DNA of 64,000 bases from Bdellovibrionales bacterium (GTDB lineage: Bacteria; Bdellovibrionota; Bdellovibrionia; Bdellovibrionales; JAUICD01): contig OZ241865.1 of NCBI GenBank assembly GCA_965203275.1, forward strand, positions 544,001-608,000, in the 5' to 3' direction. The position numbers were made by a program. Below are positions 32,701-38,700 of the stretch, in pieces. Each line of letters begins with the position of its first letter. Positions within the stretch are counted from its first letter, which is position 1.

Positions 32701-35700
32701 GACCACTTTTAGTAGAGAAGGATCCCTTTATTCCTTTACAGCATGTTAAGGAAAAATTCTTTTATTGCCTCAAGAGCAAGCGACTTACGATAAAGGAACT
32801 TTTTCCTTAACATCGTGTTAAAAAATGAGGACATCCTCCTTCCTAAAATTGAACAAGCTTTTGAGACAGTTAGCCTTTGATCGACGGCGAGAGCCGTCGT
32901 GCTAACTGTCCAAAAGTAGCCAGAGGCTAGTTCAATTTTAGGGAAACAGAGGTTGGTTTACTTTTAGTGAGCCAAAGCCAACGCACGTATTTCCAAAAAA
33001 GGTTCGTACGGGTAGACGAAAATCAACGAAGTTAGATAATAAAAGGCCCAAATAAAGAAGTGAGAATGATATATACAACAAAGAGCATATATGTAGGATG
33101 TTATACAATGAATTTCTGCCCGATCACCTCAAAATTGACCTTCCAGTTCTCTGAAAGAAGCTTGACCTGGTGGATTTACGAAATTAGAAATGGAATATTC
33201 AAGGAAGGGAAATTTTGAGGGAAACAACGCACGTATCTCTGAAAGAGGTTCGTACGGGTAGACGAAAATATACGAAGTTAGACAATAGAAGGTCCAAGAA
33301 GTGAGAATGATATATACAACAAAGAGCATATATGTAGGATGTTATACAATGAATTTCTGACCGATCACCTCAAAATTGACCTTCCATTTCTCTGAAAAAA
33401 GCTTGACCTGGTGGATCTATGAAATTAGAAATGGAATATTCAAGGAAGGGAAATTTTGAGGGAAACAATTCACGTATCTCTGAAAGAGGTTCGTACGGGT
33501 AGACGAAAATATACGAAATTAGACAATAGAAGGTCCAATAGAACTACTGGCTTGATATAACTTTTTGAAGTTTCTCTAAGGATTTTCTTAATTGTCCGGA
33601 GGCTTTTGTCATTCTCCATGCACTTAATTTAAGTTCTACTTGAGATTCACTTAATTGCAGATGGCTATTTGTTGCTTCATCACCTGATTGAATGATCTGC
33701 AAAAGAGGAATACGCCCTAATAAATAGCGTCTTTCATCTAATGTGGCTCTCTCTGTTTGCTTGCTCACATTTTCTTCTCGCAGTTTGACAATATTTTCAA
33801 GCTCCTTAAACTGTGAACAATTATTAAGCCATTGGAGTTGCAACTGAGATCGCATATAAGATGACATAGCGACCCCTTTAGCATGCTCTGCTAAAGCCTC
33901 TGACATATTTGCTTTTTCTTGAAATTTTGAAAGTGGCATCATCACCTCAAAACCTGCAAAAAGGCTTGTATTGTCAAATAGAAAAGATTTTTTCATCACT
34001 TGGAAAGCTGATGAATTTTCTTGATTGAGTGCAGATAATCCTAAAACAAGTTTCAAGTCAGGCAAGAAAGCATTACGAGCAACATTTTTTTTTAAAAGAC
34101 TTGCATTTTTTAAATATTCCCAATACTGCACTTCTGTAGATGTTTTAGGAATATCATTGATATCACAATCTTCTATTACATGGTCAGAATCCAATGATAT
34201 ATTAATTTTCAAAGGGTCATAAACAAGCCAGTGGCTAGGGAGCTTAAGATTTAAGACAACCTCTCGCCATATATTCATCAAAGATTCCCTTGCTAAACGC
34301 AACCTTACTTGAGCTTCTAACAGAGAGCCTTCTACTTGCAAAAGATCTGATCTCTCTGCTGTACCTCGCCTCCGTTTTATTCTTGTAATATTGACCAATC
34401 TTCTTTTACTAGCTAAATGATTTTGAGCTGCTTGCACTTCAGATCGGACTTTCCATACATTATAGTAGTTTTGAATCACATCCAATGCCCAGTTTTCAAT
34501 ATTTAAAGCTAAAGATTCTTGAGCAGCTTTTGTCGATAATACACCAGCTTGTTGTCTTTTCTTTGTTTGATAGCCAAAAGAATCTCTTAATAATGATTGT
34601 GAAACAGAAAATGTAAGATCTGATTGAAAGGCATTGGCTAAAGAAGTGTTATTTAAACCCAAAGTAACTTTTGTTCCTGTTTGAAAGAAAGTATCAGCTT
34701 GTACATTATAATAAGGACCATCACCAAAATTTCGCATAGTAGAAAATGAAGAGATATGCCTGTTAGATCTAGAAGAACCATCAGAGCGAAGGCCTACTTG
34801 TGAGGTCAAGCGAGTCTCTGTAGGAATACGAGATAAGTATTCTGCCTTTGGGATAGCAAAGGCTTCAGATGTAACAATCCTAAAAGTATCAGAGCTTTTA
34901 ATTAATTCTGTGAGGACAAAATCTAAAGTCAAAGTTTGTATAACTTTTTTATTGTTAGCCTGAGAGGTATTTTGAGAATGATCTTTTGGAGAGACAGCAT
35001 AAGAAAGATTGAAAAAATACAACAAAAAAAGAGGATAAACTAAAAATTGATTTTTTATTAATATCTCTTTCCGCAGTATTTTTTTCAATTTTAAAATTTT
35101 CATATTCAAAACCTCTCTATGTATAAAAAAGCTTTGAAGTCAAAGCCCATAATAAATGTAAAGAATATCAGATTTACCATACAATGTCATAGGACCTGAT
35201 CAAAATACCTAGCCATTTATCTATGACTGGAGCTAATAAAAAAGCAAATAGGCTTGCATTTACCCATAAGAAAAACCTTAGCCATCCTGTACCAGCTGGC
35301 TTCTGAGAAAATCTAAAAAATTCATAAAGTAAAATAAAAGCAAACGGAAGTACTAAAAATACATAAAAGAAATGAGCATCTACAAACCAAGGGGATGCTA
35401 TAGCTACAGCAGTATAAGTAAATATATAGAGTCCTATATGATAGAGAGTTTTTTGTCGCCCTAGTATGGCAGGTAAGACTGGTATATGAGCTTTTTTATA
35501 ATCTTCTGCATATTTGATGGCTAAGGACCAAAAGTGTGGCATTTGCCATAAAAACAAAATCAGAAAAAGGTAAATACATTCAATGCCTAAAGCCAATAAG
35601 TCTCTAGTAGCAAAGTAGCCAATGACCACAGGCATAGCTCCAGGGATTGCACCTAGAACAGCACCAAAAATCATATAAGGTTTCCACCAAAGGGTATACA

Positions 35701-38700
35701 AACCATTGTAAAGGATCAGAGTCAAAAGTCCAAGTGTGGCCACAAGAGGTTTGAGCCAAAACAAAATTAAAAGCCCTAGTGTGAGCATCCAAAGACTTAT
35801 GCGAAAACCTAAAAGCCAAGAAATTTGACCTGACGGAATAGGCCGTCGACAAGTTCTTTTCATTTGAGCATCAAGAGAAGATTCTTGCACTTGATTAAAA
35901 GCACAGCTTCCTGCAGCAAGCAAAATAAACCCGATAGAAAATAATACGAGGTGAGCTAGCTCAAAGGGTTGGCCTGGCAACATACCTAAAAAATAGCCCG
36001 TCAAAGAGCATATATAGGAGAAAAAAACAATCCCTGATTTTGTAAATTTTGACCAGGTACGCATAGATGCTTTCATACTTATTTTTTATACAAATACAAA
36101 TAAAAAATCAAGATATTCTTATAGCTTTCTTTTTGAAAAGCTGTCAAGGCTTAGGAGTCTATTTCACTAAAAGTGGTCAGACAGCAAGCTTCTCTGAAGC
36201 TTGCCATGTAACAACACTAGGCAATGACCATTTTGCCAATGGCGAAAGCCATTGCGGTCATTGCCAGAAAGTAGCCAGAGGCTAGACCACTTTTAGTGAA
36301 ATAGTGAAAGAGTGAAAAAGACGTTGACAAAAAAATCTCCTATTAATTAACATAAAAAATAATATATTCGATTCAACCATTATTCAAAATACAGATTAAA
36401 AGTAACTATCTAAATTAAGAAGTATAACTATTGAATGAATGTCTTTCAAAGGAATGATGATGCATCAGAAGAATAAATTTAAAAATATTTTAATAAATAA
36501 AAGATAGCTTCTATTTTGACAAGACAAAGAGAATAAAAAGGAACTTATGCAAAAAATATGGCTTAAACATTATCCTAAAGGGATTGCAGAAAAGATTAAC
36601 CCATCTGCCTTTAAAAGCATAGTGGAAGTTTTTGAAGGAGCCTGTAGACGCTTTGGCCAATTACCTGCTTTTAAAAATATGGGGACGACAATTTCTTTTA
36701 ATGATTTAGATTGTCTCACTTATCAAATGGCTTCTTTTTTAAGTAACCACTTAGGTCTTCAAAAAGGGGATAGAATTGCCATACAATTACCTAATCTTTT
36801 GCAAACCCCTATTGCTATCTTTGGAGCCTTGCGTGCTGGTCTTATTGTAGTCAATACCAATCCTTTATATACTGCTAGAGAAATGAAGCATCAGTTTCAA
36901 GATTCAGGGGCTAATGCTATTATTATTTTAGCTCATTTTGCTGCACAACTAGAAAGTATCCTCAAAGAGACACAAATTAAACATGTTGTGGTCACAGAAG
37001 CAGGAGATGGACTTAAGTTTCCTAAAAATTTACTGGTCAATATAGCTTTAAAATACATGAAAAGGGCTGTCCCCTCTTACAATATCCCTCAAGCTATCTC
37101 CTACAAAGAAGCATTGGATATAGGCAAGAAGCATTCTCTTAATGTTCAAGAGTCTTCTGGAGAGGACCTGGCTTTTATACAGTACACAGGGGGAACAACG
37201 GGTGTCAGTAAAGGGGCTATGCTCACTCATAAAAATATCATAGCAAATATGGAACAAATAGGGGCTTGGCTTATTCCACAGCTAAGAGAAGGTACAGAAC
37301 AAATTATCACAGCCCTACCCTTGTATCATATTTTTTCACTCACAGTTAATTGTATGGCTTTAATGAAAATCGGTAGCTGTAACATTCTGATCACAAATCC
37401 AAAAGATATTTCAGGGTTTATTAAAGAACTTCAAAAACATCCCTTTACTGTGATGACAGGGGTGAATACTTTATTCTCTGCTTTGATGAATCATCCTTCT
37501 TTTTCTAAAATAGATTGGTCTACTAATAAAATATCAGTGGCAGGAGGCATGGCTTTGCAAAAGGCTGTAACAGATCAGTGGTATATTCACACAGGACAAG
37601 TCATTATAGAAGGTTATGGACTGACAGAAGCTTCTCCTGTTGTGACTTGCAATCCTCTTGATGGCAAAGAAAAAGTGGGTTCTATTGGATTGCCTCTACC
37701 TTCGACAGAAGTGAAAATGCTTGATAAAAAGGGACAGGAAGTACCTGTTGGGAAACCAGGCGAGCTTTGTGTCAGAGGTCCACAGGTGATGAAGGGTTAT
37801 TGGCAACATCCAGAAGAAACAAAAAAAGTGCTTTCAAAAGATGGCTGGCTTAAAACAGGGGATATTGCTATTTTAGAAGAAGGTGGTTACTTGAAAATTG
37901 TAGACAGAAAAAAAGACATGATTTTAGTTTCTGGATTTAATGTGTACCCTAATGAAATAGAGGATGTGATTGCTATGCATCCAGATGTTTTAGAAGTAGC
38001 TGCTGTGGGAGTACCTGATGATAAATCAGGAGAGGCTGTACAGGTTTTTATTATTCCTAAAAACGATGATGTTTCAAAACAAGATATTATGAACCATTCT
38101 CGAAAGCACCTTGTGGCTTACAAAGTTCCCAAGTATATTGAATTCCGCAAAACACTACCTAAAAGTCATATAGGGAAAATTCTTAGACGAGTCCTCAAAT
38201 AGACATAGTAATGAGTTTATTAGGGTGTTATTGTTTGTCGCTACTATTAAAATAGAATGCATTTCTACTGACAACAAATCTCGATTTGCTTTTATCCGTT
38301 TTCCACCAACTTATTACGATAAAAGCTTGGTTATGTCTCTTCCCTTTTTTTGACTTCTTGTACTTTTTAATTTCTAACTCTATTTCACTCAAAGTGAACT
38401 GGCCTCTGGCCACTTTCTGGCGATGACCACGATGGCTTTCGCCATTGACAAAATGGTCATTGCCTAGAAAGCCTGTTCACTTTGAGTAGGAAGGATCCTT
38501 TCCTCTTTTAACACCATGTTAAGGAAAAAGTTCTTTCTTACACCTTTTGGCCCGACGGCTTACGCCGTCGATAAAATGGTCATTGCCTCAAAAATCTATG
38601 CATTTTGAGTAGGGCGAATCTCCTTGCTTCTTGACACCATGTTAAGGAAAAATTCTTTTATTGTCTCAAGAGCAAGCAGTTTGCGAATAAAACTCTGTTT

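Follow-up and report, generated by a model that had tools for sequence, protein, structure and literature searches.

Quinone auxotrophs have been described before, among bacteria of the gut and symbionts of insects. Lactic acid bacteria such as Streptococcus agalactiae respire only with external haem and a quinone or quinone precursor; fermentation is their default, their oxidase is a cytochrome bd, and they often retain a MenA that completes DHNA. Among insect symbionts, Buchnera is a case similar to Baumannia. Baumannia cicadellinicola, a host-restricted intracellular gammaproteobacterium with a tiny genome, has a respiratory chain and lacks ubiquinone and menaquinone enzymes; its describers infer that it "likely needs to import ubiquinone" and suggest a co-symbiont as the supplier (Wu et al. 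2006; PMC1472245). In the gut, Faecalibacterium is described as lacking menaquinone genes and needing external menaquinone (e.g., Faecalibacterium sp. KLE1255 has no quinone genes, keeps an NADH dehydrogenase and a quinone-dependent reductase, and needs its neighbours' quinone for growth) (Fenn et al. 2017; PMC5738691). The same paper presents such menaquinone-dependent gut bacteria as anaerobes whose truncated chain ends in fumarate, and their losses as independent events in several lineages. Walczuchella and Sulcia, reduced flavobacterial endosymbionts of insects, have NADH dehydrogenase and a cytochrome c oxidase but only part of the menaquinone pathway; on the gene content given in PMC3971599 they retain ispB, menA, and menB and can therefore finish a quinone from a precursor. 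For Bdellovibrio bacteriovorus, UQ-8 is reported with only three homologues of the ubiquinone pathway (Spain et al. 2016, as cited in PMC13386864). A quinone without a complete genomic pathway would fit acquisition from prey. Section 5 of that survey describes a newly found quinone, with new quinones and pathways still being discovered (PMC13386864).

The bacterium considered here is an uncultured, sponge-associated member of the Bdellovibrionales, the order that also includes the predator Bdellovibrio, its relative. Its full respiratory chain is kept but the known routes to quinone and haem are lost, and these cofactors therefore most likely come from the host or from neighbouring cells. The organism is probably an auxotroph for both, respiring with scavenged quinone and haem whose uptake is deduced from gene content. 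It adds a member to a described class, and the precedents in gut bacteria and insect symbionts agree with the remark in the initial annotation that quinone scavenging is not new in kind. The likeness to KLE1255 lies in missing quinone genes alongside retained quinone-dependent enzymes; unlike the gut anaerobes, this bacterium has full aerobic complex I, alternative complex III (ACIII), and caa3 oxidase, haem synthesis is missing as well, and the dependence is read from the genome alone. In contrast to Baumannia, the genome is 2.57 Mb, the organism is sponge-associated, and the loss is common to larger-genome relatives without host markers. The lactic acid bacteria differ in that neither bd oxidase, MenA, nor E. 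coli-type fermentation enzymes were found in the present genome, and Walczuchella and Sulcia in that none of ispB, menA, and menB is retained here. Relatives resembling B. bacteriovorus (e.g., G040) keep men genes and several UbiA-family genes, unlike the present genome.

The window, the whole stretch of DNA that was analysed, is 64,000 nucleotides long and belongs to a genome assembled as one contig of 2,567,810 bp (CheckM 90.4/2.3). Its relevant features are the following.

27271..28506, plus strand: ankyrin-repeat protein (Ank_2, 81 bits), one of a very large expansion.
33544..35109, minus strand: TolC-like outer-membrane efflux protein (PF02321 OEP, 77.5 bits), 64 nt downstream of ctaB, in the same orientation.
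35174..36076, minus strand: heme O synthase (CtaB/CyoE) open reading frame, 300 aa (TIGR01473 and PF01040).
36077..36546, no strand: gap between ctaB and the divergently oriented acyl-CoA ligase gene, holding one copy of a repeat abundant in the genome (by word depth).
36547..38202, plus strand: long-chain acyl-CoA ligase, FadD-like, adjoining ctaB (PF00501, 314 bits, and PF13193).
45412..48891, minus strand: 1159-aa protein with RCC1 repeats, which are eukaryote-like (PF13540 RCC1_2, 95 bits; PF00415, 52 bits).

The ctaB reading frame had been given as 35174 to 36064; the first coordinate holds, but 36064 corresponds to the second in-frame Met and the frame runs to 36076. Judged by its profile matches, the product is a heme O synthase, predicted to farnesylate haem b. 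TIGR01473 passes marginally (212 bits; cut-off 210.3) and PF01040 scores 169 bits; in a six-frame search of the whole genome, PF01040 has this frame as its single match at E<=1, which bears out the claim that the only UbiA-family gene encodes heme O synthase. At the blocks N61..D69..R78, LWQMPHFWSLAI, and EDYKKAHIPVLP the protein aligns with E. coli CyoE, and the MenA of the relative G007 differs there. Candidate roles as UbiA (UbiA_proteo, 62.4 bits against a cut-off of 275.45) and as MenA (no MenA model among the matches at E<=0.001) were both ruled out. Its partners are encoded: CtaA (PF02628, 67 bits), CoxI/III/IV, and a CoxII-cytochrome c protein.

A DHNA-like soluble head-group precursor could conceivably be imported and prenylated by heme O synthase with farnesyl diphosphate (FPP). 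Bacteria that retain MenA are known to salvage DHNA (PMC5738691). CtaB uses FPP, which the cell can make, as both a mevalonate route and an FPP-synthase-like enzyme are encoded. Against this, MenA and MenG are both absent, and CtaB is 52-79% identical to its family relatives, with the CyoE-type blocks kept and no sign of divergence. We know of no enzyme with dual activity as heme O synthase and quinone prenyltransferase, and precursor import of this kind is highly improbable.

The neighbouring ligase is the genome's sole weak MenE look-alike and was rejected as MenE, as E. coli MenE and the MenE proteins of relatives match it at just 22-27% identity. In the intergenic repeat, the summed contig word depth (run X3) climbs between 36076 and 36397 from about 49 to 3,059-9,668, with many loose ends.

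The missing quinone and shikimate genes noted in the initial annotation are confirmed by six-frame profiles, by tblastn with E. coli proteins, and by Men proteins from the same order. Six-frame searches of the whole genome returned nothing for chorismate synthase (PF01264) or MenD (TIGR00173) and, as had been reported, nothing over the cut-off for PF01209 (MenG/UbiE; best 9.6 bits). When 50 E. coli K-12 proteins were compared with the genome by tblastn (threshold E<=0.01), MenC/D/F/H, UbiC/D/E/G/H/I/J/X, and AroA/B/C/E/G found no match. The AroK match is a 33-residue P-loop only, and MenB and MenE match, at 25-29% identity, no more than generic crotonases and an acyl-CoA ligase. None of the ubiquinone-pathway enzymes (UbiA, UbiC, UbiD/X, UbiE, UbiG, UbiH/I) gave a tblastn match at that threshold. 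Twenty-two Men-cluster proteins from G007, G009, and G040 have no orthologue in the genome (best matches generic crotonases, 27-29% identity), and the relatives' MenA proteins find nothing (best E 0.68). The futalosine pathway, tested through MqnA/MqnD (PF02621) and not MqnC or MqnE, gave no match in this genome and none over the cut-off in any of 41 genomes. The absence of UbiD and FAD_binding_3 comes from tblastn rather than profiles, and COQ7 (PF03232) lay outside the set searched.

That the genes exist and were missed, through an assembly gap, an extra replicon, or excessive divergence, is largely refuted and barely credible. CheckM completeness is just 90.4%, which leaves some room for it; against it, the genome assembled into one contig of 2.57 Mb, the six-frame searches used profiles as well as same-order proteins, and some 15 genes belonging to two pathways must have escaped together. 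An artefact is unlikely also because the complete one-contig relatives G001, G003, and G011 (three of the ten relatives in the pathway-less set) show the same absences.

The UbiB-like kinase and the one polyprenyl synthase said to remain were both seen by profile search. The kinase, at 392 bits, falls short of the TIGR01982 cut-off (487.55); it has a homologue in 39 of 41 relatives, menaquinone producers among them. The genome's one trans-prenyl synthase resembles FPP synthase (189 bits; heptaprenyl and octaprenyl models give it 58-63 bits). Neither a long-chain prenyl-diphosphate synthase nor a type III polyketide synthase was found in the genome.

These absences bear on a further explanation, in which four families make a quinone or other lipid electron carrier by an undescribed route that needs neither chorismate, a UbiA-family prenyltransferase, nor a long-chain trans-prenyl synthase. 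The chain is kept across those families, including genomes of 2.6-3.8 Mb with few host-association markers, and no importer candidate emerged. The survey in PMC13386864 reports lineages lacking a known quinone pathway and allows that others may await discovery. On the other side, the sole UbiA-family gene is orthologous to CtaB and has the CyoE-specific blocks, possible tail makers are limited to the FPP-synthase-like enzyme and UppS, the type III polyketide synthase is absent, and the joint loss of haem, aromatic amino acid, and quinone synthesis fits general scavenging. All established routes to isoprenoid quinones, to our knowledge, include a UbiA-family enzyme. An undescribed route is therefore unlikely; if real, it would mean a new quinone or quinone substitute, and the pathway-less genomes are a good place to seek one.

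The quinone-dependent chain reported as complete proves to be so and looks functional. All of NuoA-N are present, with NuoCD fused (tblastn with E. coli proteins), together with SdhCAB (b558 type), ETF-QO, a quinone-dependent class-2 DHODH (NF003652, 274.6 bits; cut-off 267), alternative complex III (ActA-E), CoxI/III/IV, the CoxII-cytochrome c of a caa3 oxidase, and CtaA. A restriction-modification pair lies inside the ACIII cluster. The open frames of all chain genes are intact and score highly with their profiles (e.g., COX1, 505 bits; NuoH, 344 bits), and the chain is kept in five of five family genomes despite about 50% protein divergence. NuoCD retains residues aligning with E. coli H224 and Y273, which we take to be quinone ligands of complex I. 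Quinone-reducing and quinol-oxidising enzymes are thus intact in a genome in which no known quinone pathway was found.

The respiratory genes might alternatively be relics under loss, with the host or fermentation supplying energy. Genome reduction and the many repeats speak for this, as do the scattered nuo and atp genes, the restriction-modification pair inside the ACIII cluster, and the loss of NuoH in two members of family f8. The intact frames and their conservation, the NuoCD residues, and the absence from the genome of an ATP/ADP (TLC) translocase and of AckA, PflB, and AdhE all argue the other way, and a relic chain is very unlikely. ATP synthase genes (AtpA/B/C/D/G) and a TCA cycle are present; as far as these functions and the absent enzymes just named go, the description "obligately respiratory" may hold.

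The quinone auxotrophy proposed in the initial annotation agrees with all the genomic tests run. The lineage has lost the order's classical menaquinone pathway, the shikimate pathway, and the long-chain prenyl-diphosphate synthase. Finished isoprenoid quinone from host or neighbour cells would most likely enter the bacterium's own membrane; complex I, succinate dehydrogenase, ETF-QO, and DHODH would then reduce this pool, and alternative complex III would pass electrons to the caa3 oxidase, with ATP synthase completing the system. Haem b would likewise be imported in this genus and converted by CtaB and CtaA to haem O and then haem A for the oxidase. This genus lacks haem synthesis, a loss that goes with those of quinone and aromatic amino acid synthesis; neither ferrochelatase nor HemB/C/D/E/H was detected in the genome, whereas the Adk control was found. 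Uptake of whole quinone would carry a very hydrophobic molecule across two membranes, which raises the question of how whole quinones move between cells. Among the importer candidates searched, the polyisoprenoid-binding YceI family (present in 36 of the 41 sampled genomes of the order) and FadL are absent from this genome, the MlaD system is single and ordinary, and no quinone importer was identified. If the reading is correct, the entire aerobic energy metabolism (proton-pumping complex I, ACIII, caa3) runs on two lipid-soluble cofactors that the cell cannot make, and pyrimidine synthesis via DHODH depends on the same cofactors. The difficulty of culturing such bacteria would then have a concrete cause, and adding haemin and a quinone or a helper strain would suggest itself.

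Relatives make menaquinone by a menFDHBACE cluster (menF-D-H-B-A-C-E). True MenG (E<=1e-50) occurs in 30 of the 41 sampled genomes, so the earlier figure of 366 of 383 for PF01209 in the order was inflated, because generic methyltransferases pass that model's low cut-off. AroC likewise occurs in 30 of 41, and the two genes are missing from the same 11 genomes (f1, 5; f8, 3; f11, 1; f13, 2). MenD, present in 358 of the order's 384 genomes, occurs in none of these 11. The pathway loss is common to four small Bdellovibrionales families (11 of the 384 genomes searched). COX1 is kept in all 11 and NuoH in nine. Host dependence cannot explain the loss in every case, because five of the 11 (G002, G014, G016, G026, G031) have genomes of 2.6-3.8 Mb and few ankyrin repeats. 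The loss in four families, some without host markers, together with the ubiquinone reported in Bdellovibrio, suggests that the group may long have drawn quinone from its prey. If the auxotrophy reading is right, the trait would extend beyond anaerobes of the gut and insect symbionts with tiny genomes, to a lineage of predatory bacteria living in sponges.

The ankyrin expansion, with at least 118 Ank_2 matches in this genome and 0-12 in most relatives, marks an association with a eukaryotic host. Further support for host association comes from presence in sponge metagenomes, as contigs 97.8-100% identical to the genome occur in two runs labelled sponge metagenome.

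The ctaB gene encodes the heme O synthase of this bacterium, and in the window it lies as follows with its neighbours:

35174..36076, minus strand: ctaB, 300 aa
64 nt downstream of ctaB: TolC-like outer-membrane protein
neighbour of ctaB, in divergent orientation: long-chain acyl-CoA ligase

The initial annotation had identified the gene correctly, and only the end it gave, 36064, requires revision; that position is the second in-frame methionine, and the open reading frame reaches 36076. The product belongs to the UbiA family (PF01040, 169 bits) and is assigned as heme O synthase because it exceeds the cut-off of TIGR01473, the equivalog for that enzyme, albeit marginally (212 versus 210.3 bits), falls far short of the cut-off for proteobacterial UbiA (62 versus 275 bits), matches no MenA model at E<=0.001, and carries CyoE-type sequence blocks. 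In an alignment of the ctaB product, Escherichia coli CyoE, two family relatives, and the MenA of one relative, the blocks around N61, D69, and R78, together with LWQMPHFWSLAI and EDYKKAHIPVLP, are common to the ctaB product and CyoE and are missing from the MenA. The protein is 78% and 52% identical to CtaB of two complete chromosomes (G001 and G003, respectively), MAGs labelled Bdellovibrionales that are its closest named records. In another member of the family, G004, TGA and TAG stops interrupt the heme O synthase locus (G004:C14:230234-230982) beside an intact COX1 gene; either the gene has decayed to a pseudogene or the assembly is wrong there. In one sequencing run (X3), the intergenic region upstream of ctaB (window 36076-36397) has a summed contig word depth 60-200 times that of its flanks, with many loose ends.

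The genome keeps a respiratory chain and lacks recognisable genes for quinone synthesis, an observation of the initial annotation that both profile and tblastn searches confirm. The assembly is a single contig of 2,567,810 bp (CheckM, 90.4% complete and 2.3% contaminated). In six-frame profile searches of the whole genome, ctaB is indeed the only UbiA-family gene (one PF01040 match at E<=1), UbiE/MenG is missing as reported (best score, 9.6 bits), and chorismate synthase, MenD, and MqnA/D are likewise absent. None of 22 men-cluster proteins from relatives has an orthologue by tblastn: MenB finds two generic crotonases (27-29% identity), MenE finds the acyl-CoA ligase adjoining ctaB, and the tail synthase finds one gene (26-28% identity). 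From a set of 50 E. coli K-12 queries, MenC/D/F/H, UbiC/D/E/G/H/I/J/X, AroA/B/C/E/G, and CydA/B have no tblastn matches at E<=0.01. Type III polyketide synthases are the basis of polyketide quinones; none was found in the genome, and that route is rejected. Nor does the UbiB-like kinase hint at a hidden ubiquinone pathway, as 39 of 41 relatives, menaquinone producers included, have a homologue (about 560 aa).

In contrast to quinone synthesis, the quinone-dependent chain described previously is present throughout. E. coli Nuo queries match all complex I subunits from A to N, with NuoC and NuoD fused, and the genes lie at seven places rather than in one operon (A/H, B/CD, E/F, G, I, J/K/L, and M/N). 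The atp genes are dispersed likewise (atpA, atpD/C, atpG, and atpB). NuoCD keeps a histidine and a tyrosine where E. coli H224 and Y273 align, positions that we take to be quinone ligands. SdhA and SdhB are accompanied by an SdhC that belongs to the b558 family with two haems (182 bits, cut-off 96). Pfam and NCBIfam scans support the ETF-QO, which is adjoined by an Arf-like GTPase domain, and the alternative complex III (ActA, ActB, ActC, ActD, and a cytochrome c). The quinone-dependent DHODH, encoded just outside the window, scores 274.6 bits on NF003652 (cut-off 267), and the aa3/caa3 oxidase comprises CoxI, CoxIII, CoxIV, and a CoxII fused to cytochrome c, with SCO1 and CtaA also encoded. 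The genome also encodes F1Fo subunits and TCA enzymes, and E. coli AckA, PflB, and AdhE have no matches in it. The chain thus looks functional, and an obligately respiratory lifestyle is plausible. Energy parasitism was considered and rejected, as no ATP/ADP translocase was found in the family (f1).

Two loci outside the window deserve mention beside the chain. Within the alternative complex III cluster, actC and actD are separated by a restriction-modification pair (genome 728,159-730,026; L115:6159-8026), in which an N6_N4 DNA methylase scores 172 bits and a DpnII-like endonuclease 27.5 bits. Separate from complex I, a three-gene module (genome 402,940-405,027; L117:2940-5027) encodes a 2x[4Fe-4S] ferredoxin together with two further proteins, one resembling NuoB (Oxidored_q6, 140 aa) and one weakly resembling NuoD (431 aa).

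Many relatives in the order make menaquinone. In complete relatives a second UbiA-family gene is part of a men cluster, which runs menF-menD-menH-menB-menA-menC-menE in G007 and G009 but is shorter, menA-menC-menE, in G024 and G040; in these clusters MenD scores 284-295 bits and MenB 453-464 bits on NCBIfam models, and on the Bdellovibrio-specific MenC model the G040 protein reaches 640 bits. Of 41 genomes from 13 families (the studied genome, G000, and 40 relatives), 30 have true MenG (E<=1e-50) and equally many have chorismate synthase, and the same 11 lack both: f1 G000-G004; f8 G011, G022, and G031; f11 G014; and f13 G016 and G026. MenD occurs in 358 of 384 genomes of the order, and the 26 misses are these 11 plus 15 scattered genomes (4/182 in f10, 7/109 in f6, 2/35 in f12, 1/26 in f2, and 1/7 in f9), which are 71-91% complete for the 9 listed of the 15. 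Eight of the pathway-less genomes (G000-G003, G011, G016, G022, and G031) contain a single UbiA-family match, and the only locus of G004 is the one interrupted by stops; a second match reaches 82 bits in G014, and that of G026 reaches 21 bits only, under the cut-off. COX1 is kept in all 11 and NuoH in 9, G011 and G022 lacking it. G001, G003, and G011 are one-contig assemblies. The loss is a lineage trait and not an assembly artefact.

The number of losses was approached with a 41-tip FastTree of COX1 and NuoH, for which each genome supplied its best A-type COX1 and a single NuoH (missing or fragmentary sequences: COX1 in G019, G025, G032, and G036; NuoH in G011, G021, G022, and G026). Here f8 falls beside the menaquinone-producing f9 (0.87), f11 beside f1 (0.61), and f13 beside f3 (0.70). 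The pathway-less families are not grouped together, which, with support of only 0.61-0.87 at the deciding nodes, hints at two or three events.

The prenyl supply of the cell fits haem O rather than a long-chain quinone. Its sole trans-prenyl-diphosphate synthase, encoded close to UppS, is FPP-synthase-like (189 bits, versus 63 and 58 for the octaprenyl and heptaprenyl models), and a mevalonate route is indicated by HMG-CoA reductase (310 bits), with GcpE not found in the genome. Farnesyl diphosphate for haem O can therefore be made, and apparently no long quinone tail is. Beside the FPP synthase gene, a Dfp-like gene (genome 1,100,776-1,101,474; L120:1777-2475) encodes a C-terminal CoaB domain only (PF04127, 232 aa); no flavoprotein domain of the CoaC/UbiX type is seen in it, and E. 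coli UbiX matches nothing genome-wide.

Haem itself is not made by any enzyme searched for: ferrochelatase is absent, E. coli HemB, C, D, E, and H have no matches in the genome (the Adk control matched), and HemL finds only a generic aminotransferase (23% identity). The ctaB product must therefore use imported haem. Proteins with b-, c-, o-, and a-type haems are all encoded. Within f1, ferrochelatase loss is confined to the genus of the studied genome (G000 and G001), and the gene is kept in the other pathway-less families; the loss of haem synthesis was therefore a later, separate step.

The simplest account is that the bacterium is a double auxotroph for quinone and haem. Both would be taken from a host or neighbouring cells and would serve the bacterium's own respiratory chain. 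The quinone auxotrophy proposed in the initial annotation is thus supported as the best explanation and falls short of a demonstration. It is reasonable to guess that the native partner is menaquinone, because relatives make that quinone and the chain has a b558-type Sdh anchor.

No quinone importer emerged among YceI, FadL, MlaD, and the UbiB-like kinase. YceI, rejected as a quinone receptor, occurs in 36 of 41 genomes but is missing from G000, G001, G003, and G004; no FadL outer-membrane channel was found; the one MlaD/MCE copy is ordinary and uninformative; and the UbiB-like kinase, being order-wide, gives no pointer. Five tandem paralogues of 157-187 aa (window 41874-45044, minus strand), each single-pass with an N-terminal membrane helix, carry 11-residue repeats of the NQSENNLRELV and EDKFDRKFDT types. 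They were rejected as lipid handlers, as the 'Apolipoprotein' match is only 28 bits (cut-off 90) and no lipid-handling evidence was found.

Association with a host is suggested by repeat proteins, two of which lie in the window:

27271-28506: ankyrin-repeat protein
45412-48891: RCC1-repeat protein, 1159 aa

The genome has at least 118 Ank_2 matches (96 of 263 candidates scored), compared with 79 in G001, 42 in G003, 90 in G004, 28 in G011, and 87 in G022; the remaining 35 genomes have 0-12. Among the genomes without the pathway, five measure 2.6-3.8 Mb and are poor in ankyrin repeats, which favours the serious rival to auxotrophy, an undescribed quinone pathway; new quinones have also been discovered recently (PMC13386864). 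We consider this rival improbable. Near-identical DNA is found in sequencing runs of five studies, and two runs labelled as sponge metagenomes contain contigs that match the genome at 97.8-100% identity; these are short and of low depth and cover 27/30 and 16/30 bins. The source sample may be among the runs with the better matches. Sponge-associated Bdellovibrionota MAGs that are small, low in GC, and equipped with ankyrin domains are on record, and the available text does not comment on quinones (PMC9944714).

Quinone auxotrophy with a retained chain is already known, having been demonstrated in gut anaerobes (PMC5738691) and inferred in Baumannia (PMC1472245); insect symbionts among the flavobacteria retain ispB, menA, and menB (PMC3971599), and a survey of 26,264 genomes reports scattered lineages without quinone pathways (PMC13386864). 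The added interest here is the full aerobic chain with a probable joint dependence on haem and quinone, the pattern at clade level within a predatory order, and the sponge association. The accessible Bdellovibrionota literature yielded no account of quinone-pathway loss in Bdellovibrionales; the survey's supplementary tables might list it, and its per-order table may still bear on novelty; 'Bdellovibrionales' is absent from the text of those supplementary files examined.

UQ-8 has been reported for B. bacteriovorus, with three pathway homologues only (as cited in PMC13386864). Menaquinone-producing relatives share a second conserved trio (G007 L016:12302-15055; G040 L019:14299-17053), which is absent from the studied genome. 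Besides a polyprenyl synthase, it encodes an RsmJ-like methyltransferase and a UbiA-family protein of ~360 aa that is MenA-like but divergent. This trio might make another prenylated compound and could be relevant to the ubiquinone of B. bacteriovorus.
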